Positions 37,103 to 64,000 of a stretch of 64,000 nt of DNA are shown here, piece by piece. The stretch's first letter is position 1. Every line of letters starts with the position of its first letter. Both the position numbers and the translations under genes were made by a program. The notes under the pieces are model-generated. The model did not search any database and was not told the DNA's origin. It saw only the letters and a list, made by a program, of their open reading frames with translations. The stretch is from the sequence record DRR723986_2455; one strand, given 5' to 3'.

Positions 37103-39594
<2,492 letters not shown>

Positions 39595-49238: not shown

Positions 49239-50351
49239 ATGCAATCACTATCATTAAGCAACGAGCCAGCGTTGATTCAGCACCTTTACGGTGCCCTGAC
49301 TGATCCGGCGGGTTTTCATCACTTTCTCGAGACGTTGACGCTGTCTATTGGCGGTGAAGCCGCTGAGCTGTTGGTGATTCGCCGCAACCCCCTGCGGGTG
49401 GAGAATGTTTGGTACTACGGCCTTTCTGAGGAGTTGTTGCAGTGGTACATCGGCAGCGACATGATTGCCGTGGATATCGTCATCAATACGGCAATTCGTC
49501 AGGCGCCAGGCGCTTTTCAGACCGCGCTTACCTATGTCGAAGAGACTAACCCCGATGAGGGCTCTGTGCGCTGGGAAGCAGAGCAGGGCATGCTCGATGC
49601 CGCTTGGCTTGTTGTTGAAAGCTCAGCGGATGAATGTGTGCTGCTGACAATTCAAAGAACCGTGGAACAGGGTGCATTTCAGCCGCATGAAATTGGCGCT
49701 CTGAACCGTCTTGCTCCCTATATTCGTCAGGCTGTGGGCCTCAATCGGCAGTTAGCATCGCGTAGCGACGTGTCGTCATCCCTGGCTGCGGTCATCGATG
49801 TATTGCCCGATGCGACGTTAGTGCTGGACAGCTATTCCACGGTGTTGCACTCCAATAAGGCCGCGCGAGCGTTGCTTGATCGCGAGCGCAGCCTGGCGAT
49901 ACGCGATGAGCGCCTGAGCTTTTCAGAGACGGCGCTGCAATCCGCGTTTTTTCTCGCCTCGACACAGGTTGTGCGCGCCAGTATTGGTCGCGAGGGGCAT
50001 TACACCGAGACCTTATTCTTAAAACGTGCCGGTCGTCAGCCGCTGATATTTGTATTGCGGCCGATAGAGAGCAGCGAGTTATTGGCGGGCGGAGCGCTGC
50101 TTACCATTTATGAGCCCGGTCACCGGCAGTTGCCAAATGCCGAGCAAATTGCCGGCTATTTTGAACTTACGGTGGCGGAGTCACAGGTGTGCGAGCACTT
50201 GGTAGCGGGCATGGATTTGCAAGCTATTGCCGACCACTTGGGGCGCAAGATAAGCACTGTGCGTTACCAGTTAAAGCAGGTTTTTCAGAAGACGGCATGC
50301 ACCCGGCAGGGAGAGTTGGTGAGCAGTATTTTAGCGGCGCTATTGCGATAG
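49239..50351 (+). CDS. LuxR-type HTH transcriptional regulator with PAS-like domain
   Basis: C-terminal LTVAESQV..STVRYQLKQVFQKT..RQGELV. Confidence 0.85.
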   Translation: MQSLSLSNEPALIQHLYGALTDPAGFHHFLETLTLSIGGEAAELLVIRRNPLRVENVWYYGLSEELLQWYIGSDMIAVDIVINTAIRQAPGAFQTALTYVEETNPDEGSVRWEAEQGMLDAAWLVVESSADECVLLTIQRTVEQGAFQPHEIGALNRLAPYIRQAVGLNRQLASRSDVSSSLAAVIDVLPDATLVLDSYSTVLHSNKAARALLDRERSLAIRDERLSFSETALQSAFFLASTQVVRASIGREGHYTETLFLKRAGRQPLIFVLRPIESSELLAGGALLTIYEPGHRQLPNAEQIAGYFELTVAESQVCEHLVAGMDLQAIADHLGRKISTVRYQLKQVFQKTACTRQGELVSSILAALLR

Positions 50352-50403
50352 TGCCTGTTGCAATGGGTGTCTGCGGGCAGTTTATGCCCGCAGGAGATTG
50401 AGC

Positions 50404-52053
50404 TTATTTTGCGACGACCTCTCCGACCAGCTCGCTGATAAAAAAGGCACTTTCATGGGACGTGGTGCCGTCCTTATGCGAAAAGCTAATCAGCGCCATT
50501 TCACGTCCGCGGCTGTCTTTGATGGGTGCAAAGAGCCAATAGCCTGTTGAGTCGTCGTCCATGGTTTCATAGTAATCGAGACTGCCCGCCGCATTGACCT
50601 TCCAGCTGTGTTCGATCGTGCTTGATTCATCGGGGCCAAAATCCACCCTGCCTGAGCCGTTTTCGTAGAGCCTAACCGAAATTTTATCGGCCTCATCTGG
50701 GAAGGCGTATGTAAAGGCTTTGCTCTGGTTCTCGACAAACAGGCGCTCTGCGCTGCGCTCAACGGTAGCGGTTTTTCTATAGATGGCGCTGCCGTTGTCA
50801 TCTTCTACTCGCAATTTTACCGTGAAGCGGCCCACGCGCATGAAGCTGAATGCATCCTCGGCGTCGCTTTCGCAGTTGAAATCACCCCATTTAGTGGTGG
50901 TGCATACATCGTCACCGTCGGATAAGCCGCCGTCTCCGTCGGTTTCTGAAACGATGTCGGTCACGCTGAACTGTTTGCCATCAATGCTGTAATTTCCCCA
51001 TTCTGAGGTAGGTGCGTCAGCGGGGAGGGAGGCGTCACCCTCGTCGCGATAGCTGTGGGCAACGTTGTAGCTGCCATCCTCAAGTACCGTAAGAACGTGG
51101 AATTCGTCTGCCTGATCTTCAATCAGCCAGCTACCTACAAAAGCATTGCTGCTACTTTTGACGCTTTTAAACGCTGCGGCGGCATCCGCCTCGCTACCAA
51201 AATGTAGTTCATCGTTAACTAAGTGAACCGTTTCCTGGCCGCAGCCTTCGCCTAGCGTTTCACAAAAACCGCCATCGGTGTTGGACTGTGCCTGGGCGCT
51301 GAACGTGATTACACCATCGGCAGGGTTCCACTCGTAGTAGCCCCACTCTGCGGTGGCGGTACCCTGGTCATCGTTGCCGTATTTGTGACTGACAATGTAG
51401 CGATTCCCGCTCAGGAAAGTCAGTACGCTGACTTCTTCGCCATTTGGCCCTTTACCGTTACTGCTCTCGCCCGCCGGCTCGACAAATAACCAGCTGCCGC
51501 GCAGGTCGGCCTGTTGTGAACGGCCAAAATGGGCTTCGGCCTTGTCCGCGCTGACTAAGCTTTTGCCGGTGGGGGTCGCAACTTCGGTGTCGAATTGCGT
51601 TTCAAACTCTGACTGCGGTAAGCCGAGATTGAGCTGTGCATCGGCAAGAAGTCCGTGAATCTCGCCGTCAATGGTAATGCCATTGTCAGCATTGCCGTCA
51701 TCGTCCAGTGACTGCAGCAAGCGCAGAATATTGTTGACCTGGTTGGGCGTGCTGCCGTCCATGTCGGCTGGGGTGACTCGGCCGCTGGCGGGAACCTCGG
51801 GCAGTGTGATTCCACCAATACTGAAGGTGACGCTATCGCCCTCAACAAATTCGTACTCACCCAGCTCAGTCGTGCTGCCTGATTGGCCGCTGGGCGCGGT
51901 TTAATAGCGGATGCCGGCAACGGCGCTGTCGGTGAAAATGCCTCGCTGAACCTCCGGCTCGGAACTATTGCTTCCGCCAGACGAGGAACCACCGCCACCA
52001 CAGGCGGTGAGTGTAAAGGCCAGGGCGAGCGGCCCCCAATAAGCTGATTTCAT
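50404..52053 (-). pseudogene. Acidic surface lipoprotein gene interrupted by one in-frame TAA (codon 51)
   Basis: ggaga RBS, MKSAYWGPLALAFTLTAC lipobox, ...VAGIRY*TAPSGQSG..., continuing in frame into the 452-aa ORF; stop at 51901-51903. Confidence 0.8.
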
Positions 52054-52263
52054 GGTATCTCCGATTTTTGTACCGAATGTCTAAAGTCGCTAGAGGACCA
52101 TAGAGCCAGGTACAGCTCATCTCCCAAATTGGGTATGCGTTACTGGGTGGCGGCGGGAATCGGTAATATTTCTATAATTACCGGGAGCGCGCCTTACTGT
52201 TTGCCTGTTTGGGGGTGGACGTAAGTGAAATGGTGGGGCATAAAAAAAGGCCTTCGCTGTGTC

Positions 52264-52406
52264 TGTAGGTAACTTCATTAATTGTCGCCTGCTTTTCATC
52301 AAAAGTTGCCACTTTCGCCGTAATTTCCGGTTCTTTGCGATGGTTATCTTCACTATTGACGACCATATTTCAGAATAAGTTGTCAGTGTTTTTATCATAA
52401 GGTGGA
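52264..52406 (+). repeat. Putative transposon end with TnsB-binding repeats
   Basis: TGTAGGTAAC then ttcattaattgtcgcc (52274), ttcatcaaaagttgcc (52295), ttcagaataagttgtc (52369), tttatcataaggtgga (52391). Confidence 0.7.
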
Positions 52407-52531
52407 AAATTAAAACCTTTTAAAAACAATTGGTTGGGGTTTTTGTTGCAGTTATTAGGGTTGGTTTTGCTCTAACAATCCTGTGTGCACAGCGGTATAT
52501 TGAGCTAGCTCGGCGCCAAATGGAGGAGAAT

Positions 52532-52729
52532 ATGAGCACCCCGTCCCGTGAAGGAGCATCTCCTGGAGAGCTCTTTGTCGACGCGCGGCCAGTCCCGGCT
52601 AGTTCGAACACAGAATATGACCTACGTGAGCTTATTGGCCCACAAGAGACGATTTCCAAGTGCTATGACCGCAACGCTGAGGATAAGCAATGGCTCAATG
52701 ACCTGCCTGTAGGTTTGGAAGCACTGTAA
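52532..52729 (+). CDS. Small protein resembling the C-terminal part of PemI/MazE-type antitoxins
   Basis: ggagga RBS; YDLRELI...EDKQWLNDLPVGLEAL; no AbrB N-domain, no toxin ORF after it. Confidence 0.5.
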   Translation: MSTPSREGASPGELFVDARPVPASSNTEYDLRELIGPQETISKCYDRNAEDKQWLNDLPVGLEAL

Positions 52730-53013
52730 TTATCATGGCTATTTGCATTCTGAGGTTGGAAATGACGCATTGGCGATGCGTTTGAGTTCCGCCTCTTTTG
52801 CGCAGAAGATCGTTGAAATAAAATTCATAGGCGTCTCAAATGACACTTAGCGGACGCCCATAACACCGAAGTCGACGGCGGTATATAAATGAGCGGGCAA
52901 GTCGGTTACCTTCGTGCATAAGGCGCGTTTTGGCGCAATTTCTATTTAGTTGATCATTAAACCCCGTCTTTTAAGGCTCACGCTTTGCCTTAAAATGCGC
53001 AGTTTACCTGAGG

Positions 53014-53038
53014 AAAAGAGGGCGGCACTCCGCCCCCT
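53014..53038 (-). terminator. Intrinsic terminator after the Cys-rich protein gene
   Basis: Minus strand agggggcgg-agtg-ccgccctct-ttt. Confidence 0.7.
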
Positions 53039-53040
53039 AC

Positions 53041-54342
53041 CTACCACTTGAAGCCGGGCAGAATCGATTCGGCTGCTTTGCGAAGATCGTTATTCTTGCC
53101 CGGGCCATGGGTCAGATCATTGGCCGCGTTGCGGAAGGTCTTCACTACGTCATTGTTTTTGCCCGGGCCCTGAGTTAAGTCATTGGCCGCATTGCGGAAG
53201 GTTTTCACGACGTCGTTGTTAGGGCCAAAGTGGCGGGCAAATTCATTGCTCAGATTGTCCAGTGCCTTAACAATATCGTTGTTCGGCCCAAAGCAACCAT
53301 TTTTGCCGCCCACACCGTGAGTGAAGCACTTGCTCAGTTCTCGGCTGGTAAGGCGACCACCGGTACAGGTAACAAAGGCCGTCGGCTCCCCCCCCGAACC
53401 CATCGCACACTCCATTGCAATTTGCTGCTCTGGCGTCAGGTCCAGCGACCCCATGCCATAGCAGACTGCCGTGCCGTATACTGAAATATCGCCTTGCTCG
53501 GATTCCTGCTGCATGCAATTGACCAGGCGGGCCTGATCTTCACTGAAAGAATCCTGCGCCATGCACAAGGGATACGCCTTGTAGTTTTTTCCGTGCTGAA
53601 GATAGCAGTCACTGACCTTGGCGATGTCTCGCTGCTCCTGACTACCGCCAAGCGCGGCCAGCGTGCACAGCGCCATCTTGCCATCGTCATCCTTGGCCTC
53701 CCGGGCACATTTATAAAAGGCCCGTTCTTTTTGCCCCAGCATTTCATTAATCATACACTGTTTGAACTTGTCGTTCTGCAGCTTGCCGTTTTTCGCTCGT
53801 GAATTATTGGCACACGACAGGGCCTCACTCTCGCGGACCAACCGCGGGGCCGTGATACTAGCGCCGGGCTGTTCAAACCGTCTGGGAATGTAGCGCGTCG
53901 TCGATGTCAAAGTTTCAGCGCCCCGGACGAAACTACCGCCTCGCGGCAAAGGCCGATACGCATGCAGCCACGGATTCGGCGGTGGGTACCCCGGGTTAAA
54001 CTTGCACTGCCCAATCTGATTCGCCCCCTGATACATATTGACGGCCACCATCGCGCCCGCCCAGTCAATGAAGTAGCCGTTGTTCGGATCGATGCTCGAG
54101 AGCTGGATATACATCATCCCTGAGGGGTCACGCCGCATGGGATTGAAGACCGGTCCAAAACCCTGTCTCTGACGAAAAAAGGTGGTTTTTTCCGATACGT
54201 AGGTCCCATTGGTCATCAAAGCTAGGCGGTCAGGCCCGCTACTATCCGCATAAGAACAGGATCCGATTTGTGGTAGCTGCGCCTGGGTAGCGGCTGATAA
54301 CACTAAAAGCATTAACGATAGCAACATCGATGGTAAGCGCAT
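53041..54342 (-). CDS. Secreted Cys-rich repeat protein
   Basis: Signal peptide; regularly spaced Cys pairs; C-terminal 21-aa repeats. Confidence 0.8.
   Translation of the reverse strand: MRLPSMLLSLMLLVLSAATQAQLPQIGSCSYADSSGPDRLALMTNGTYVSEKTTFFRQRQGFGPVFNPMRRDPSGMMYIQLSSIDPNNGYFIDWAGAMVAVNMYQGANQIGQCKFNPGYPPPNPWLHAYRPLPRGGSFVRGAETLTSTTRYIPRRFEQPGASITAPRLVRESEALSCANNSRAKNGKLQNDKFKQCMINEMLGQKERAFYKCAREAKDDDGKMALCTLAALGGSQEQRDIAKVSDCYLQHGKNYKAYPLCMAQDSFSEDQARLVNCMQQESEQGDISVYGTAVCYGMGSLDLTPEQQIAMECAMGSGGEPTAFVTCTGGRLTSRELSKCFTHGVGGKNGCFGPNNDIVKALDNLSNEFARHFGPNNDVVKTFRNAANDLTQGPGKNNDVVKTFRNAANDLTHGPGKNNDLRKAAESILPGFKW
53086..53288 (-). repeat. 63-bp coding tandem repeat (G[P/K]NND..K units)
   Basis: gcccgggcc at 53098 and 53161; NNDVVKTFRNAANDLT occurs twice. 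Confidence 0.85.
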
Positions 54343-54390
54343 TTTCTTCCCCTTGTCTTTGCTTCGTTATGAGCGGCCCCTCAGCAGAGC

Positions 54391-54933
54391 CTAGCGAACC
54401 GTCACGGTAATGGCGATGAGTTTGGATTGGTTACCGCCGAGCGCCGCGGCTTGCGATGACATTTCACCGGCAATATCAGACAACGCGGCCTTAGACTGGG
54501 TTACCATACAGACGGAACCGTTATGGCTGACGTCCTTGCCAACGAGAATGCAGCCCTGAGTTTGGCGTGGATAGTTGCCAACATGGAGTTGCACCAACTT
54601 TCGATCGGGCACGCCCTCGAGCTGAATTCGCCAGCCCTTCTTACCATCGCGGCGAATCCACGCAGGATAGGTACCTTGCGGGATCCGGCTGATGGCAGTT
54701 TCATTGTTCTTCCATGGCAGCTCAAGCGATCGCCCGACCTCTTTGTCGTTGACCAGTATTCGCCCTATCGTGCTGTTGTCCGCGCAAGTCATATTGCGCT
54801 CAATCACTAGGTTGAAAACCGCATCCTGCTTTGATGCCAATAGATCACTGAGTTTGTCGTCTGCTTGCGACAGATACGGTAGCGAATACAAGGCGAATAA
54901 GAGTGAGGCAAGGAAGTGGCGTGTTCTCAGCAT
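54391..54933 (-). CDS. DUF5675 family secreted protein (L,D-transpeptidase-like motif)
   Basis: Signal peptide; TIGRI..SLELPW..SRIPQGTY..VPDR..LHVGN....QGCILVG. Confidence 0.75.
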   Translation of the reverse strand: MLRTRHFLASLLFALYSLPYLSQADDKLSDLLASKQDAVFNLVIERNMTCADNSTIGRILVNDKEVGRSLELPWKNNETAISRIPQGTYPAWIRRDGKKGWRIQLEGVPDRKLVQLHVGNYPRQTQGCILVGKDVSHNGSVCMVTQSKAALSDIAGEMSSQAAALGGNQSKLIAITVTVR

Positions 54934-55584
54934 GCTGGCCCCTGACAAGTTAGTTTCGAAGGGAGAATTGTCTATTCCCACTATCGCGAGAACGTTTGTG
55001 GAAGGTAAGTAAATATCCCTGTTTGAGGAATTCGGGGTAGCTGACAAGATTAGTCCCTTTCCCGAAAATAGTTACTACGTTTAGGTAGTAAAAACTATAT
55101 ATTTCAATGGGTTGTGTTTCGGTTGGCGGTGTTAGCACGACACTGTCCCTTTATTACATTGAAATTCCCTTGCTCTTGATCATATACCGGCCAATTGAGA
55201 AATCAATAATTTAACGCCAGCATAACGGTATAAGCCTAAGACTACTGAAAAAGGCTAAAACGCCGCGGTTATTGGAAAGTTTTGATTGCTCCAAGCATCT
55301 GGTAATGTGGCGCAGCGCTCGTAACGCACAACGAATCTAAACATTCTGACTGTCCGTTTATTGCCAACAGCCGACCTTCATACAAATATGACAATAGTCC
55401 AATCCTGTCGAAAATAGGGCGTTGACTGTAATCCAGCTATTTCCGGGTTTTGGTTGTGATTGGGTATGAATAGAATTTCAACCCTAGTCTGCAATTAGGC
55501 CTTATTATTGAATTAGCCCTCTTTGATTCATTTGGTTATAGTTTTTTGTCTTGGGTCCTTTTGGTGAGGGCTATTACTCATTTG

Positions 55585-55614
55585 CAGGGGCATCGACGTT
55601 AATCAATGCCCCTG
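55585..55614 (-). terminator. Hairpin downstream of the 325-aa gene
   Basis: caggggcat...atgcccctg inverted repeat. Confidence 0.55.
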
Positions 55615-55621
55615 ATGTCGA

Positions 55622-56599
55622 TCAAGCCTTTGGGTTTTGCATCGCCAATGTATAGCCGTACCAGCTCTCGAAGTCGCCGTCGAAGCTCCCATTGCAAGCT
55701 TGGTCTTTTACCATAGTCAAAAAGGATCGACGCTCCTTCTCTGAAGAGAGATTCAGAGCAGGCTCAACATGATTGGCAGTGACAATAAAACCAGCGCCAT
55801 TAGCCTCGCAACAGTAGAGTCCCGTGTCCTCAATATCACTTACGGCCACCACTAATGCATTGTATTCCTCTGGGCCATCAGGGTCTGCCAGTTCCAAGAA
55901 AAGGGCTAAATCCTTCGTGAAAAGGGGTTCTGGGTCAGACCAATCAGTATCCCTCTGACCCGACACTGATATACCCGTACATGAAAGTCCTCGCTTTCCG
56001 GCTTGGTGGGCAAGTGTTACTGCCGCCTCGAAATTGATCTGGTGTCCGGAGTAGACTCTATCTGGATGAGGCGTGCCTGAAAGACATCCAGTGGTAGAAA
56101 CTACGGTCTCAGATTTACCTATCAATACCCTCGGGTCTGATTCGTAGTCCGGAAACATAGGAAAATCTGCATTTGTCATAGCAATCTCGCCTGACAGTTC
56201 GTCCTCAATCTCCGAATTTCGCTCAATCAGAAGGTGCTCAATAATAAAATCACCAATGTCGTCATAGTAGTGGACTTCACCGCGAAGCAAGTCCTCGCTC
56301 TCAAGCCGTTCCACTAGGTAATTAGCAAGAGCTCGTGAATCGGGAAGGTCAGAAGGCAGATCTTTCAGGCCAGCTCTTCGAGCATCCATAAGTTGTAAAT
56401 CTGGCAAGAAAAATTCAGCGCTTGAGAGGTTGTTAATAGAGGGCCGTGTATCTGCAAGATTGGCAGCATGGCTTTTGTAGCCAAACATTGCTGCGACTAG
56501 CTCTCTCGCATGGCTGGCTTTTAACTTATTTCCAGGAGCCTGTTGCGCATAAAGTTGGCGCAAGGAATCTGAACAAGATTTAGACACATCTGTAGACAT
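55622..56599 (-). CDS. Hypothetical protein with KLKASHARELVAAMFGY N-terminal helical domain
   Basis: ggaga RBS; 325-aa ORF; N-terminus resembles the small Glyoxalase_8-like domain seen in mobile elements. Confidence 0.7.
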   Translation of the reverse strand: MSTDVSKSCSDSLRQLYAQQAPGNKLKASHARELVAAMFGYKSHAANLADTRPSINNLSSAEFFLPDLQLMDARRAGLKDLPSDLPDSRALANYLVERLESEDLLRGEVHYYDDIGDFIIEHLLIERNSEIEDELSGEIAMTNADFPMFPDYESDPRVLIGKSETVVSTTGCLSGTPHPDRVYSGHQINFEAAVTLAHQAGKRGLSCTGISVSGQRDTDWSDPEPLFTKDLALFLELADPDGPEEYNALVVAVSDIEDTGLYCCEANGAGFIVTANHVEPALNLSSEKERRSFLTMVKDQACNGSFDGDFESWYGYTLAMQNPKA

Positions 56600-57049
56600 A
56601 GGATCATCTCCAAACCAACGCTGGACTAGACGTGTAGCAGTGGGCGTTTAAACACTACACCTGCCAGCGAATTGGCAAAGGTGATGTCCTTCGTAGAGGT
56701 ATTTCCGCTGTCTTTTTGGCCGCACACAACCATGGCAATCAGCTCCTGTTTTAAGCATACGGATTGCTGGGGGTTTTGCAAGCGTAGGGAAACTCCCAAG
56801 CGGGGCATCTTGCCTACGGTATCAGTGCGAAAGAGGAGAGCAGCTTAATTTGCGTGACTCCTTTTCATCGCGACAAAGTGGGTAACTGGTCGCCCTAAAA
56901 AAACGGCAGGTAGGAGATCGTTGTCCTGGAGCTGGCTCGCCGGGTTGATCGTTTGCATGGCCTTTGGCCAAAGGGGGAGGCTTTCCATTCACTGTTTATT
57001 GGGAGTAAAGTGGGTCTAGAGTTCTTGCAGGCAGGGAAAGGATAATAGT

Positions 57050-57400
57050 GTGAAGGAATACAACCCAAACTCGTTTCTAGGGTCAGGCTACAAAAATTTA
57101 GACCTAAAATATATTTTTGACCACCTTCGGAATATAGGGATCGCAGCTGCAATTTTAATAGCAGGGGTCAACCTTGATCCGGATATGCTGAATAAAACAT
57201 TTCCGAATATCAATCTTAGTCCTGGGTGGTTTTCAATGGGACTTGTCTTCTTGTCACTGGTACTGCTGAGCCTCAATTTTGCACAGCTGCTGTATATATC
57301 CGCTAAGAAAGGCACGAGGATGTCGGCTTCAATTTCCGCATTCCTGTCGCTGCCATTATATTTTCTAACTGCGCTGATCTATATGGCATACGTTTCTTGA
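57050..57400 (+). CDS. Small hypothetical membrane protein (about 3 TM)
   Basis: Three hydrophobic stretches in a 116-aa ORF. Confidence 0.6.
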   Translation: MKEYNPNSFLGSGYKNLDLKYIFDHLRNIGIAAAILIAGVNLDPDMLNKTFPNINLSPGWFSMGLVFLSLVLLSLNFAQLLYISAKKGTRMSASISAFLSLPLYFLTALIYMAYVS

Positions 57401-57468
57401 ACTGGCATTTCCATGTGATCTGGGATTTCAAAGCATTAATATAGCTGGTCGAGCGAAACGAGGGCTGT

Positions 57469-57672
57469 GTGATGGAGTCGGAACGATACAAAGTAATGCT
57501 TAAGGCTGCCACGCATCTCATGGACGGCGATGAGGAGGCTGCAAAGCAATGGCTGGCTAGTCCACAGGATCTTTTTAGTGGTGCGGCCCCAGAAGTCCAT
57601 GGGGAAAGTGATGTGGGCCTGCAGGAAGTGCTCCAATTAATAGGAAGATTGGAGCACGGAGTGTTCTCATGA
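57469..57672 (+). CDS. Xre/MbcA/ParS antitoxin C-terminal domain (DUF2384) only
   Basis: GDEEAAKQWLASP..G.AP..VLQLIGRLEHGVFS signature; no HTH, no RES toxin. Confidence 0.8.
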   Translation: MMESERYKVMLKAATHLMDGDEEAAKQWLASPQDLFSGAAPEVHGESDVGLQEVLQLIGRLEHGVFS

Positions 57673-57739
57673 GTTGAAGGCCGTGGCTAGTTGCTGTTAG
57701 TCCTCTTTCTCGGTCTTTGCGCTTGGTGCCAAAGAGTGT

Positions 57740-58165
57740 TCAGGTTCCTGGCTTCATATAATTTCTGGCCTCAAATATCACCCTGCTGATACTGCCTCCG
57801 CTAATAATATGTTCAGCAGGTGATTTTCCGTCTATTCCTTCGGACAGAAAAAATATTATGGCTGATTCTTGGTCATTCTTGTCTGGAAATGCGGAGATAA
57901 TATCCGGTAAATGCGCTTGAATTGTCGAAATAAACTGAAATTTTGGTAAGCGGTATTCAGTGCCGTGAAGCTGGTAAACGAGAAGTCCGTTCTGCTTAAT
58001 TTTCCTTATGATTTCCGCCGGAGATAGCGACAACTCACCGGCGGCCTCTTCCATCGATAATGCGCCGCCATTGTTCTGTACAAGAGTGTGAAATCTGTCA
58101 GTGCCTGTCATCAAAGCGGAGCTGATTAAATCGTCACAGTCGCCTTTTCTGTCCCTCATATCCAT
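57740..58165 (-). CDS. HTH protein resembling MbcA-like antitoxins
   Basis: LSMEEAAGEL HTH, YRLPKFQF, FFLS..IDGKSPAEHI. Confidence 0.55.
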   Translation of the reverse strand: MDMRDRKGDCDDLISSALMTGTDRFHTLVQNNGGALSMEEAAGELSLSPAEIIRKIKQNGLLVYQLHGTEYRLPKFQFISTIQAHLPDIISAFPDKNDQESAIIFFLSEGIDGKSPAEHIISGGSISRVIFEARNYMKPGT

Positions 58166-58301
58166 TTTTTTCCATTGTGCAATGGCCTACTGTGTAGCAG
58201 GGCTCTCACATTCACTAAAAATGACTCGACCCGTGAAGATATAACCGCTGGACATCAAGGTTTGGCGGCGCTAATCCGCACAATTATCGCAGCGGAATTG
58301 T

Positions 58302-58506
58302 TGTTTTCAGAAGCTATTTGAAAATCATGTCACAAAATAAATAACAAGAAAATGACTAAAGTAAATCGATAAATTTAAAGAACGTAGTCATGTCATAAGT
58401 CTTAAAGTTACTTTATAAAAATATCACACAGTTTGTATCTATATGTTTTTAAAAGATATTTGTTGAATGTGCTGATTTTCTTCTATATGTTTTAGAAAAT
58501 TATTTG
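58302..58506 (+). repeat. Three 19-bp direct repeats TGTTTTnnnAAnnTATTTG
   Basis: Copies at 58302, 58444 and 58488 in the AT-rich region upstream of the regulator/tns operon. Confidence 0.55.
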
Positions 58507-58519
58507 AAATTTTTTTCCT

Positions 58520-58765
58520 ATGGCTAATAGAGAGCGGATTAAGCAGGCATTTAGCGATAGCAACCTGTCAATTGCCGAATGGTCTCGGGAGAGGGGCTTT
58601 AGTGAAAGTTTGGTCTATCAGGTGCTGGCGGCGAAAAAGCTCCCGAAGCGGGGGCAAAGCTACGAAATAGCCGTGGCTTTGGGGTTAGTTGACCCATCTC
58701 GGGCGAGTGTGTCCGGGAAAGTGGCCGAGTTCGAAAGAAAAATTAAGGAGGGGCTTAGCGCGTAG
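58520..58765 (+). CDS. Phage-associated DNA-binding protein, BcepMu gp16 / Ner-like
   Basis: SIAEWSRERGFSESLVYQVL...RGQSYEIAVALGL. Confidence 0.8.
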   Translation: MANRERIKQAFSDSNLSIAEWSRERGFSESLVYQVLAAKKLPKRGQSYEIAVALGLVDPSRASVSGKVAEFERKIKEGLSA

Positions 58766-58931
58766 ATAAAGAAAAACCCGAAAAACTTGCGCTTTCCGGG
58801 CTTCCCGTGAGGTAGATACCTCGATCTAATCAATCTCAGTATCTCTCCTCGTTCGAAACCTGTCAAGCGTCCTATTCCCTGAATCAATGATTTGGGTCGA
58901 GCCCTCTTGGCCCAAAAAAGAGGACCATGTG

Positions 58932-61529
58932 ATGAATTCTATTAGAGCGGTGATCGAACAACCAAAAATGGCCGGCAAAATAACACCAGCAGGCCGTGCT
59001 TACATTGAGCGAGTGGCTAGAAATCCGCCCTCTCGAGCTGTCGGCGGAGGTATGTACAACAATGTAGTTTACTTCCCGTCTCGTAAGATGGGGTACGCGC
59101 TACATCTAGAAAGCTCTACCTTGGAATTAGCCTTCGCTATCTGGTGCGAGATACAACTTTCGGTACAGCGGTACTACACGCAACCGGAGCCGAGGCGGAT
59201 AAGGTACCAGTCTGCGTCGGGGCGTGTAGTCGGAAGTATGGTAACGCATGACTTCCTCGTCATTGGGGATGATGGCGTACAGTTCGTTGAGTGCAAGCCA
59301 AGTAGCGTGCTTGAGAAAAAACGCAAGAAGAATCCAACTAGGTATTTTGTTGATGAAGAGGGTCAATGGCAATGTGCAGCGTCAAAGCAGGACGCATCCA
59401 CGCTCGGCTTTGAGCATCGCATCGTAACTGAAAAATCTCTTAGCCAGAAATTGGTTCGTAACGCCGATATTTTAAAATCGCATGTTTTGCATATGGACTA
59501 TGCATTCGAGCCCGCAAGCCAGGCGCGAGATAATGTAGGTATACCCCCCAGCATAGAAATTATGACCCTTTTCGAATTATATGAGCAAGTGGGTCAGGAT
59601 GTAGCCTTGCAAGGAATTCTTGCTGGCCGTTGGTTTGTTGATCTCGAAAATTCGTTGCTTATTCACCCAGAGAGAGTGTGGGTATATTTCAATAAAAATA
59701 AAATGTTAATTCAAAGAAAGTTATCGGATTGCCGACGAATAATTGTAGAGAATATTTACGATCTCGAGAGCGCCAGGACGGTTTTTTGGGATGGCAATTC
59801 CTGGGACATTGTGAATTTTAATGTCACGTCTAAGGCTATCACGCTTTGCTCATCATCGTCTGTTCTTCGTTTAGAGGGTGACGAATTGGAAAAGCTAATT
59901 GCAAAGCGGGCGTTTTCAAAGTCCAGCCCTTCTTCTCAAGCCGTCATTAATGAAAAGCTAATCCATGCAAAAGACGCTGACATAGAAGAGATGTTGCGGC
60001 GTGCAGAGATGGTAAATGGGAAAAATAGTTCTGCTTCAGTAAGAACCGTCCAACGCTACAAACGATCTTTCTTCGAGGCGGAGGAGGATTTTGGTAATGG
60101 CCTAGTTGGTTTGTTGCCGCGTCATCCTGCGAAGGGGAATCGTACGCGTCGGCTTTGCGACGATACCGAAGCATTGATGAAGAAGATTATTGAAAAAAAA
60201 TATCTGAAGAAAAACGGTGGCTCTGTGCGCAATTCGTACATATTGTACCTTGCTATCGCGCGGCGGATGAATCTTCAGGAAGTCACTTACAATACTTTCC
60301 ACTCGCGGGTAACGAAAATCTGTCAGAGAAGGCGGGTATCCCTTCGTGAGGGTGTAAAGGCTGCCTACCAGATGGCGCCCGCCGGTCGTTTGGAAATTGA
60401 AGAATCGCGGCCGCCCGACGGAGACTTCGCATTCCAGATTGCTCACATCGACTCCACGCCAATTGAGCTTTCAATGGTGTCATCGATTAACGGTAAAGCT
60501 ATAGGGAGTCTATGGCTGACCGTGATGGTTGATGCGTACTCTCGACATCCGCTCGCCTTCACCCTTTCTCCCCACAAGCCGTCTTTCCGCACGATAATGG
60601 AATTAATTATGAAGTGCTCGAAGCGTTGGTCGAGATTGCCGCTTACATTGGTGGTCGATCAAGGTTCTGAGCATAAAAATACATACCTGCAACAACTTTG
60701 TGCGTCTCTTGAGATAACTCTCTTCTACAGGGCTGCATCTGCAGCGCGAGTTGGGGCGCCGGTTGAGCGCCTGTTCGGTACTTCTCAGCAGCAGCTCATT
60801 CATCAGCTTGAGGGAAATAGAAAAAACATAAAAATGGGACGTGGAAAATCGCCATCACACGATCCACAAAAGCAAGCGTTGTGGTCGCCTACAGAATTTT
60901 CTCGGGTATTGGAGCATTGGGCCTTTTATGTTTACCCCGGATTGACACATTCCACAACAGCTGAATCTCCTGCAGAAAGGCTGGCCAGGTCAGATGGAAA
61001 ATTTCACAGGAAGCCAGGGGTGCCAGCAACATGGAACGAGGACTTTGAATTTCTCCTGTTACCGTCACCAAAAACTGGTCCAAGGACGATCACGGTGCGT
61101 GGGGTTACGATGTATGGCATTTCCTACCAGTTTACCCGGCCTGTCAATCCAGAGCGTTTGCCCAAAGAAAAAGTATTGATGAAATATAACCCCTTCAATC
61201 TTTCTTATTGTTATGTGCAAATCAATGGATTTTGGGAGCGGCTTGTCACCAATAATCCGATTGTACGCGAGTTTATAGAGGTCGGCTTTCCGCCGACAGA
61301 AATGGAAATTATTCCCTTGTTGAGAAAGCAAAAATCAGAATACGCATCTGTTCAAGATATTCAGATTGAATTTGTTTCAGAAGTCGAGGATTTTGAGCGG
61401 GAAATTTCAAAAGGCCAAGCGGTCTTGGAACACGCCAATAAGCATCGTGACGAGGTTCCATGCCGAAGAAACCTGCACGCTCCACGTCCAATCGACACGA
61501 ACAGCCTGCCGCTAGCTGACGAGCTATAG
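58932..61529 (+). CDS. tnsAB: Fused TnsA-TnsB transposase
   Basis: N-terminal TnsA nuclease (PSRKMG..ES..E..YYTQP..DFLV..VECK); DDE core (HIDST, VVDQGSE, VERLFGT); single frame; gagga RBS before ATG 58932. Confidence 0.88.
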   Translation: MNSIRAVIEQPKMAGKITPAGRAYIERVARNPPSRAVGGGMYNNVVYFPSRKMGYALHLESSTLELAFAIWCEIQLSVQRYYTQPEPRRIRYQSASGRVVGSMVTHDFLVIGDDGVQFVECKPSSVLEKKRKKNPTRYFVDEEGQWQCAASKQDASTLGFEHRIVTEKSLSQKLVRNADILKSHVLHMDYAFEPASQARDNVGIPPSIEIMTLFELYEQVGQDVALQGILAGRWFVDLENSLLIHPERVWVYFNKNKMLIQRKLSDCRRIIVENIYDLESARTVFWDGNSWDIVNFNVTSKAITLCSSSSVLRLEGDELEKLIAKRAFSKSSPSSQAVINEKLIHAKDADIEEMLRRAEMVNGKNSSASVRTVQRYKRSFFEAEEDFGNGLVGLLPRHPAKGNRTRRLCDDTEALMKKIIEKKYLKKNGGSVRNSYILYLAIARRMNLQEVTYNTFHSRVTKICQRRRVSLREGVKAAYQMAPAGRLEIEESRPPDGDFAFQIAHIDSTPIELSMVSSINGKAIGSLWLTVMVDAYSRHPLAFTLSPHKPSFRTIMELIMKCSKRWSRLPLTLVVDQGSEHKNTYLQQLCASLEITLFYRAASAARVGAPVERLFGTSQQQLIHQLEGNRKNIKMGRGKSPSHDPQKQALWSPTEFSRVLEHWAFYVYPGLTHSTTAESPAERLARSDGKFHRKPGVPATWNEDFEFLLLPSPKTGPRTITVRGVTMYGISYQFTRPVNPERLPKEKVLMKYNPFNLSYCYVQINGFWERLVTNNPIVREFIEVGFPPTEMEIIPLLRKQKSEYASVQDIQIEFVSEVEDFEREISKGQAVLEHANKHRDEVPCRRNLHAPRPIDTNSLPLADEL

Positions 61530-61547
61530 ATTCTAGAGGACATCAAT

Positions 61548-62627
61548 ATGATTTCTCAAAAAACACTTATCGATATTGATAAATACCATTTCGATCACGA
61601 CCATTTGATCCGGGCTCGTTGGGAGCTGTCTTGTCAGATACAGTGTGGCTTGCAGCACCAATTTGCGCTAATTCTTGGCCCCTCTGGCGTGGGCAAAACG
61701 AGTTTGCTGAACTATTTCGCGAAGAAGCTAACTGAGTACAGGATGGCTCCGGAGTTCACGGAGAGAAAGTCACCTCCAATCCTGCTAAACGCTCCAGCCC
61801 GCGTGCGCGGCTCCTTTCAATGGAAGCCGTTCCTCACTGATCTTATATCCAAGCTTGGAGCCGATATGGGTGCCATTTACGACTTGGACAGACATGTCAG
61901 TGATCTGACGTTGTATGCGGCCAAGCAAGTGAGGGTTGGGTTTAAGAAGCCGCAGGTCGAAACTTTGCATGATTTAGCAGCCAGCTTGATAGACGCGCAA
62001 AAGCCATTGGCAATATTCATCGATGAAGGTCAGCACTTTAGTAATTCTGGGACTGACGATCAGCGACGTGAAGACGTCGACCGACTTAAGACATGCGTTA
62101 ATGATTTTAACACTAAGTTGGTTCTGGCTGGGACCTACGAGGGAATGGGGTTAATTGACTATAGTGAGCAAGTCGCAAGGCGAAACTCGCTGATAGAATT
62201 TCCTCGCTATGGCAAATCTGATGTTGAGCTTAAAGCTTATGCCCAATGGTATGTTTCAGTCTGCAAAAAGGTGGGGATAGATGTGCGCTTGCCGCCGCTC
62301 AATGACCCTGAATACGTACAGCACTATACCCTAGGTGTGCCTGGAATATTCACAAGCTGGCTTCAAGACGCGGTAAGCAATAGTCTGATGTGCGAGAAGA
62401 GTTCTGTTACAGAAAAAGCTTTAATTAGCACAAGACCCCATCCCAGGAAGTTAAAAGTCGCGTACGATAAAATCAGCCAGTATGAGCAGTATAACAATAT
62501 CAGCTTCGATCAACTCTGTGACTTTGATCTTATCCCTTCTCCCGGTGAGGCTAGCGATGGGGTGTCTCGGAAGAGGTCAAAGCCTGGTCGGCGTCTCCCA
62601 ACACGAGATCCGATAGGGCGTAGTTAA
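61548..62627 (+). CDS. tnsC: TnsC AAA+ ATPase
   Basis: Walker A GPSGVGKT, Walker B IFIDEGQH, QVARR arginine finger. Confidence 0.88.
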   Translation: MISQKTLIDIDKYHFDHDHLIRARWELSCQIQCGLQHQFALILGPSGVGKTSLLNYFAKKLTEYRMAPEFTERKSPPILLNAPARVRGSFQWKPFLTDLISKLGADMGAIYDLDRHVSDLTLYAAKQVRVGFKKPQVETLHDLAASLIDAQKPLAIFIDEGQHFSNSGTDDQRREDVDRLKTCVNDFNTKLVLAGTYEGMGLIDYSEQVARRNSLIEFPRYGKSDVELKAYAQWYVSVCKKVGIDVRLPPLNDPEYVQHYTLGVPGIFTSWLQDAVSNSLMCEKSSVTEKALISTRPHPRKLKVAYDKISQYEQYNNISFDQLCDFDLIPSPGEASDGVSRKRSKPGRRLPTRDPIGRS

Positions 62628-62630
62628 TCG

Positions 62631-63929
62631 ATGTCGCTCTATGCAAAGTATGGGTTCGTTTTTTGCGAACCCATAATTGAACCGGGTAGCGACGTTGAGC
62701 TAATGTCTAGCTACTTGTCCAGGTGTGCAAATGTCAATTTCACCAGCACTTCACATCTTATTGCATCATTGGAAAAAGCAATGGTGCATCGACGAGCGCG
62801 TGGAAAGAAATCAAAACGTTCACAGGGTGATATGTACAATGTAAATGGAATTGGCCCGCTTGCCAACGATGCTGTAGACGCGTTAGCTGGTGTCGAAGAC
62901 CTGAATATAGATTTTAGAAATTTGACTTTAATCAAGTGGAGGCCATGGGTCGATTTCCGATTGCATGGAGTACTTCGGCCTAACAGGATGTGGTGTGCTC
63001 AATGCTGGGCTGAAGATATTGACCGAGGGATTGACCCTTATATACGACTTCTCTGGTCACTTCATTCTGTCACTGCCTGCTACAAACACAAATGTTTTTT
63101 GGAAGATCGTTGCCCGAAGTGCGATTCCTTGCAGGACATCGTTACTTCGTTTCCGCGACAATGGTATTGCTTTAGGTGTGGAAACGACCTCCTATCAGAT
63201 GGGCAGGATATGAAGGGCGCCGGCGACGAGGCTATGTGGAAATCCCGAGGTATCGCAAGTCTAATTGATGCGGCTATCTGTGATGAAAACCGCCTTAGTC
63301 TGCAAAACCTTGGGAAGAATTTGCTATTTGTTGCGGATAATGTGTTGGACGGGGATATGACTGAGCTGGGTGAGGTGTGTGGCAACGATCTTCTCGAGGA
63401 GGGATTTTACTCTAGCTACAAAAGACTTCATTTTCAGCGAATTGTGGATGTCGCTTATCGGTTGCAGATCAGTCCCGATCAGCTATTGGGGCCAAATTTT
63501 GTAATAACTACGCCACATGAATGGAGGCCGGCAGCGTCGCGTACCAAGTACCGAAAATCTCCAAGAAAAATCGATACCGTCTTGATAAGAGAGAATATCA
63601 ACAAGTGCCTGAGCGCCCCCGAAGCTATAAGCCTGAAAAATTTTTGTAAAGACAATGACATGTATCCCGAGGTATTTCGAGGCCATTTTCCAAAGTCTGC
63701 GGAATTGATTCAACAGCGATATTCACGTAAGAAGAAATTTCAGCGGCTTTTCTCGCGTCTTCAACGGGCGGGGAAAATATACCAGGCATCATTTGACATG
63801 ATTTCTCAAGGGAGCTGCCCAAGTGAGCGCAGCTTGAGAGAGAAAACCGATCTTAAAGCCAGTGATTTTCGGCGAGATGACGTAAAACGGCTTATCGCGC
63901 AGATACAGGAAAAGTTCGGGAAGGCTTGA
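62631..63929 (+). CDS. tniQ: TniQ/TnsD target selector
   Basis: E.MSSYLSR.A..N, WCAQCW, CYKH..LEDRCPKC, CFRC zinc motifs; extended C-terminus. Confidence 0.88.
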   Translation: MSLYAKYGFVFCEPIIEPGSDVELMSSYLSRCANVNFTSTSHLIASLEKAMVHRRARGKKSKRSQGDMYNVNGIGPLANDAVDALAGVEDLNIDFRNLTLIKWRPWVDFRLHGVLRPNRMWCAQCWAEDIDRGIDPYIRLLWSLHSVTACYKHKCFLEDRCPKCDSLQDIVTSFPRQWYCFRCGNDLLSDGQDMKGAGDEAMWKSRGIASLIDAAICDENRLSLQNLGKNLLFVADNVLDGDMTELGEVCGNDLLEEGFYSSYKRLHFQRIVDVAYRLQISPDQLLGPNFVITTPHEWRPAASRTKYRKSPRKIDTVLIRENINKCLSAPEAISLKNFCKDNDMYPEVFRGHFPKSAELIQQRYSRKKKFQRLFSRLQRAGKIYQASFDMISQGSCPSERSLREKTDLKASDFRRDDVKRLIAQIQEKFGKA

Positions 63930-64000
63930 CTGGGTAAAGGCTGGTGAGAAGTCAGGTGTAGTGATAAGCCATGACAGAGCCTAGGCTAAAAAATAATATA

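Follow-up and report, generated by a model that had tools for sequence, protein, structure and literature searches.

A Tn7-like transposon end with fused TnsAB behind a gammaproteobacterial tRNA-Leu(CAG) gene, probably flanked by a 4-bp target-site duplication

Tn7 relatives that home to tRNA genes

Tn7 inserts into the terminator region of glmS. Its TG..CA ends carry arrays of TnsB sites, and protein-guided insertion (TnsABC with TnsD) takes place at a fixed distance behind a conserved gene, at attTn7; the element described here resembles it in these traits. Tn7 differs in its separate TnsA and TnsB proteins, its glmS target, its TnsE and its 5-bp duplication. A cyanobacterial family with fused TnsAB homes to tRNA genes and includes PmcCAST/Tn7744 (TnsD pathway), McCAST/Tn7575 and CyCAST/Tn7745, with tRNA-Leu as the target (PMC9881144, PMC10293859, PMC11406308). 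McCAST left ends are described as having sites in both orientations (PMC9881144), the pattern of the tRNA-proximal ends of the relatives studied here. Type I-F3 CASTs with a natural TnsAB fusion, for example Tn7479 at tRNA-Ser, are likewise gammaproteobacterial and tRNA-associated, but they are RNA-guided, leave a 5-bp duplication and belong to another TnsB branch (PMC9723613). How long is the target-site duplication in this group of transposons? The published rule is 5 bp (PMC11406308), with which Sanger data for McCAST agree (PMC9881144), and a 2024 review calls a 5-bp duplication characteristic of all Tn7 relatives.

We examined a 64,000-nucleotide stretch of DNA (sequence record DRR723986_2455, hereafter the window), the left part of which, up to purA (38248-39594), is core gammaproteobacterial chromosome. 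The transposon end at 52264 is probably the tRNA-distal one of a Tn7-like element that encodes fused TnsAB, TnsC and a single TnsD-type TniQ, sits in the terminator loop of tRNA-Leu(CAG) in the purA-rnr interval and likely left the 4-bp duplication TGTC. The element belongs to the TnsAB-fusion, tRNA-homing family of PmcCAST and McCAST. Like these two and CyCAST, it combines fused TnsAB, TnsC and a TnsD-type TniQ with insertion behind tRNA-Leu; like PmcCAST and McCAST, it would turn a left-type end with sites in two orientations towards the tRNA, as seen here in its relatives. Unlike the cyanobacterial family, it has a gammaproteobacterial host, and no cas genes, CRISPR array or second TniQ were found in 52264-64000, the part of the element inside the window. 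The proximal ends of its relatives lie 23-26 nt after the CCA of the tRNA, as opposed to 29 +/- 1 and 30-33 nt published for the cyanobacterial family (PMC9881144, PMC10293859, PMC11406308), and the duplication measures 4 bp in 7 of 12 relatives, compared with 5 bp in that family. Both the end and the tRNA-Leu site are those of a known family; the departure from the stated rule is the duplication length of the relatives, in which the window element is likely alike.

Genes for a DDE TnsB, an AAA+ TnsC and a TniQ/TnsD protein occur together in the window, which stops 71 bases past tniQ. They and the genes carried between them and the end are:

53041..54342, minus strand: cargo ORF, 433 aa, no match in Pfam, NCBIfam, PADLOC or Atlas
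54391..55047, minus strand: cargo gene, DUF5675 protein (PF18925, E 8.6e-26)
55622..56599, minus strand: cargo ORF, 325 aa, no family match
57472..57672, plus strand: Xre/MbcA/ParS C-terminal antitoxin-like ORF, 66 aa (PF09722, E 2.1e-9)
58520..58765, plus strand: small DNA-binding protein of the BcepMu gp16 family upstream of tnsAB, likely a regulator (TIGR04111, 68 bits, cut-off 34)
58887..61529, plus strand: fused TnsA-TnsB transposase, 880 aa, with rve domain (profile match to PDB 9bw1, E 3e-286)
61548..62627, plus strand: TnsC AAA+ ATPase, 359 aa (AAA_22, TniB)
62631..63929, plus strand: TniQ/TnsD target selector, 432 aa (PF06527; residues 23-405 match TnsD of PDB 8v32, E 2e-23)

TnsA and TnsB form one polypeptide, the 880-aa ORF, and both catalytic residue sets align across homologues: E75, D122, E135 and K137 of the TnsA nuclease, and D522, D591 and E627 of the DDE domain. 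We take PDB 9bw1 and 8v32 to be PmcCAST structures. Against the 3e-286 obtained with 9bw1, type I-F TnsBs match at 1e-50 to 1e-40, and Tn7 TnsB is a weak profile match (6e-17). The Mu-like gp16/Ner-type gene at 58520-58765 faces tnsAB and is accompanied by a divergent gene for a weak excisionase-type HTH protein (57740-58165); this pair is possibly a regulatory switch. At the 3' end of the 433-aa orphan gene (53041-53200), a unit of about 70 bases is repeated.

The end at 52264 and its empty target site

Three features meet at the left boundary of the element:

52242..52258, minus strand: stranded 3' arm and U-tract of the intrinsic terminator of tRNA-Leu(CAG), host DNA, which pairs with the arm found in the empty alleles G015/L006 and L110
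52259..52263, no strand: terminator loop GTGTC, holding one copy of the duplication, likely only TGTC (52260-52263); homology to the empty alleles stops at 52263, and the length is taken from relatives
52264..52409, plus strand: tRNA-distal (right-type) transposon end, with TGT, an 8-bp terminus and four direct TnsB-type sites at about 52272, 52296, 52370 and 52392

The preliminary description had read TGT at 52264, GTGTC just outside (52259-52263) and, before it, an arm of the form A7-GGCCTTCGCT (52242-52258), and all of these are present in the letters. It had also reported four related 16-mers in two pairs. These start at 52274, 52295, 52369 and 52391, match copy 2 at 12, 16, 12 and 11 of 16 positions and, by self-alignment, are spaced 21 and 22 bp. 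Lone matches at 11 of 16 positions are common (37 in the window on both strands, the four copies counted in). As a group the copies stand out: the best 16-mer with three partners scores 35, compared with 29.6 +/- 1.2 in dinucleotide shuffles of 52264-52420, none of 500 of which reaches 35. DNA alignment of transposon ends was uninformative and was not used; sites were placed with a matrix built from 18 end sites of relatives only, the window left out. It finds window sites at offsets 33, 107 and 129 from the end (scores 2.3, 6.9 and 4.4; 52296, 52370 and 52392) and a weaker fourth at offset 9 (52272, score -0.7, within the top 0.5% of window positions), all four in direct orientation. The four copies are real; the first spacing of 21 bp reflects the register of the self-alignment, and the matrix register gives the first pair a spacing of 24, which relatives share.

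The same matrix distinguishes two types of end among the relatives. Their tRNA-proximal ends have a single direct site and one or two inverted ones, whereas their distal ends have direct sites only, at offsets 9 and 32-33, plus 106-108 and 138-139 in G369, G859 and G791, which belong to the group of elements at tRNA-Phe (Phe group). The window end is of the direct-site, tRNA-distal type, and the earlier reading of a Tn7-like end, starting with TG and followed by an array of TnsB-type sites, holds for the one end that the window contains. Position 52264 is the true outer end of a Tn7-type transposon. GC content is 0.56 to its left and 0.476 to its right, and sequencing run X1 holds a related end in the same TGT register with a different flank.

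Might this end belong to an older outer element or a tandem neighbour, with the tnsAB-C-Q genes in a second, nested element? Sites of this kind often hold tandem or nested ends (G199, G375:C27, G475, G512, G829, L093), 6.6 kb of cargo separates the end from the tns genes, and the operon direction is unlike that of the nearest relatives. However, in a scan of window positions 40001-64000, end sites do not cluster a second time between 52410 and 64000, and the layout of the window end matches the ends of relatives that carry tns genes. We consider a nested arrangement improbable; the conclusion on the target holds under it too.

What did the site look like before insertion? The congener G015 matches the window to exactly 52263 and continues with AACGAAGGCC, a T-run, a minus-strand tRNA-Leu(CAG) gene and rnr, and so provides an empty allele. 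The metagenome contig L110, 97% identical to the window and the only locus retrieved by a terminator-arm scan of metagenome contigs, is also empty. Contigs of sequencing runs X1 and X2 part from the window at 52263 and have the same arm, and one of run X19 departs at 52259 with another loop; runs X3, X4 and X11 have empty alleles, and X3 and X11 read the window's own loop letters. The base just outside the transposon end at 52264 is number 22 after the tRNA CCA in the L110/X3/X11 allele and number 23 in G015. The hairpins of the empty alleles fold at -24.8 and -23.7 kcal/mol (z -7.4 and -7.2), whereas the half left in the window has no fold (z +0.8). The preliminary description had expected an insertion into the loop of a terminator that lost its 5' arm, with a minus-strand tRNA, plausibly tRNA-Leu, beyond it; the empty alleles bear this out, AACGAAGGCC being close to the predicted arm.

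Across the family, the tRNA-Leu(CAG) gene is a hotspot for islands. The nearest genome, G001, was rejected as an empty site: its match to the window breaks off at 52238, and tRNA-Leu(CAG) and rnr follow only after a hipA-like island and another terminator. The same locus (L004 1092-3300, G001:C5) and that of run X13 have a hipA/hipB-like island with a different terminator stem. This habit of the locus is what speaks for a boundary made by a tyrosine-integrase island at tRNA-Leu, with the repeats there by chance. Yet there is no tRNA 3' copy at the junction, and no tRNA gene within the window; the break falls inside a terminator loop; and the repeats beat 500 of 500 shuffles and match the ends of relatives. 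An integrase origin is largely refuted, and we regard it as very improbable.

No filled allele of the window's junction was found in the related genomes, metagenome contigs and sequencing runs searched. In each of 23 sequencing runs, fewer than half of the words of 50000-54000 occurred, and seven runs examined contained no filled junction and no more than scraps of the element, a result that does not show absence.

A TnsD-type TniQ is present, judged by its match to PDB 8v32, and the empty alleles place the insertion at a fixed distance behind the tRNA gene; a causal part for TniQ is proposed. TniQ would bind the DNA of the 3' part of the tRNA gene, a step suggested by the 3' CTGGGCACCA that Leu(CAG) and Phe genes share and by the homing of the nearest TniQs to tRNA-Phe. 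Bound TniQ would load TnsC, and TnsAB would excise the element and join it at a fixed distance, the first duplicated base lying 22 nt after CCA, with the left-type end pointing towards the tRNA. The terminator would then be struck through its distance from the tRNA and not through recognition. The spot is likely set by distance and not by the hairpin, because other elements land where no such hairpin is seen; the insertions in G369 and G859 also split a terminator. At the far end the tRNA gene would stay whole, parted from the 3' arm of its terminator.

Length of the target-site duplication

The count of duplications covers 12 gammaproteobacterial elements with a TnsAB gene and both ends found; G063:C22, G425:C69, G425:C154 and G375:C27, whose ends or targets were not resolved, were left out. 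Seven (G001:C7, G350, G062, G579, G791, G369 and G859) have exactly 4 bp and not 5, G369 and G859 sharing genus and site and so not being fully independent. No shift of either end by one base gives a 5-bp match in any of the seven. One further element (G375:C31) matches at 3 of 4 bp and another, G199, at neither length. The remaining three fit 5 bp: G475 and G512 exactly, though both contain nested ends, and L093 on the assumption that it inserted one base inside an older end. Three identical copies of a TnsAB element on cyanobacterial Nostoc plasmids, used as a method control, all gave exactly 5 bp (3/3). For G001:C7, the empty tRNA-Met site of G015 has a single copy of the 4-mer (with one substitution) and both flanks joined, which confirms the 4-bp duplication of this element. 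Spacers of 4 nt between abutting ends (G375:C27, G199, G829, L093) were not counted, because a 5-bp insertion one base into an older end looks alike. Among pairs of ends without genes, G964 matches at exactly 4 and G002 and G007 at 3 of 4 (the latter two by eye), while G032, G003:C1, G010 and G002:C1 match at neither 4 nor 5 bp (by eye).

Which length applies to the window? The first duplicated base is position 22 after CCA in G369, G859, G791 and L093 as well as in the L110/X3/X11 allele. Within this Phe group of four elements, the proximal junction lies at 25 for a 4-bp and at 26 for a 5-bp duplication. A cut at 22, as in the window, is in keeping with the group and leaves the length undecided, because only the proximal junction differs.

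A canonical 5-bp duplication, GTGTC, of the same element at the same site would follow the published rule; G475, G512 and L093 fit that length, L093 belonging to the four-member TniQ group of the window and so counting against our preferred reading, and GTGTC is exactly the 5-nt loop. On the other hand, the nearest relatives G369, G859 and G791 have exactly 4 bp. Left ends of the family at tRNA-Leu(CAG) begin after 24-25 nt, which agrees with 4 bp when the duplication starts at 22, and the Leu element of G002 matches at 3 of 4 as opposed to 1 of 5 positions. We consider the 5-bp reading unlikely, though less so than a nested arrangement. Because seven of the 12 resolved relatives, the nearest (G369) included, have exactly 4 bp, we judge from the sequence comparison that the window element probably left TGTC (52260-52263), not 5 bp. 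The far junction would then read ACA-TGTC-AACGAAGG.

The balance of evidence leans, slightly less firmly, towards a wider statement: gammaproteobacterial TnsAB-fusion branches, the window element included, may join with a 4-bp stagger while close kin in the tree still make 5 bp, home to tRNA-Phe, -Met and -Leu, and be missed by searches that allow only 5 bp. A literature search returned no report of a 4-bp duplication in Tn7-like elements and none of tRNA-Phe sites; subscription papers and supplements lay outside its scope and may bear on both. If these TnsAB enzymes do give 4 bp, pipelines for calling ends that demand 5 bp miss such elements. Kin with 4 and 5 bp would form a natural pair in which the way a DDE transpososome sets its stagger becomes directly testable, and scar length and frame arithmetic would change for integration tools built from these enzymes.

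Relatives and other tRNA sites

The site itself is ordinary for the TnsAB-fusion, tRNA-homing family. The TnsAB type occurs in 8 of 401 genomes of the order and 5 of 401 of the class (profile searches). A single-sequence TnsAB search found no related loci in genome or metagenome contigs, and a search with a 3-sequence TnsAB alignment found two. Window TnsAB is sister to that of G369 (support 99), and its TniQ groups with three tRNA-Phe-homing TniQs (SH-aLRT 97), both in quick trees made without bootstrap; the closest TnsAB is only 35% identical, and the best plasmid matches are cyanobacterial TnsAB fusions at about 29% identity. Resolvable TnsAB elements lie behind tRNA-Met or tRNA-Phe. Why would a Phe-group selector act at a Leu gene? 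The likely reason is that the tRNA-Leu(CAG) and tRNA-Phe genes share their last 10 bases.

A tRNA-Leu/rnr probe matched 34 of 40 family genomes, from which 30 loci were fetched. At five of the 30 tRNA-Leu(CAG) loci, a TGT end of the proximal type follows 24-25 nt after CCA. None of the five holds a TnsAB-fusion gene (four of the genomes have no TnsAB-profile match and the fifth has one on another contig only), and because of this we class these ends as relics or gene-less elements, whose mobiliser we infer.

The partial copy of the window's end in G022 was considered as core DNA and rejected: it covers 52310-52497 at 77%, the outer 46 bp are absent and the context is another one, which makes it a relic. 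G022 has no TnsAB or TniQ match, yet carries this copy; at L018 535-769 (G022:C33) it comprises part of the end and the next 90 bases, the outer two sites missing. Gene-less ends of the TGTCGATTCACCCATAA type (L159-L182) are present in 15 of the 40 family genomes; many lie away from tRNA genes, which suggests off-target or trans-mobilised mini-elements.

In the window (58887-63929) and in the Met group the tns operon is directed towards the tRNA, in G369, G859 and G791 away from it; it is inverted relative to the ends between these groups. Stacks of tandem elements at a single tRNA site (G199:C22, G375:C27, G475:C1, G829:C2, L093/L136), in which a right end meets a left end across 4 nt, suggest that target immunity is weak. 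The nearest relative, at G369:C1 562959-582733 (L015-L016), is preceded at 25 nt by a 3' copy of tRNA-Phe that a 53-kb integrative element left there; the cargo of this relative comprises CBASS (DncV-like, patatin, ThiF, JAB) and an IS-interrupted pair of OLD-type nuclease and UvrD genes. A complete second TnsAB-TnsC-TniQ element of 17.2 kb lies behind tRNA-Met at G001:C7 83510-100744 (L075-L076) and carries a UG5 reverse transcriptase-nitrilase (DRT), Kiwa kwaB, a type I restriction system and an HTH-IrrE gene.
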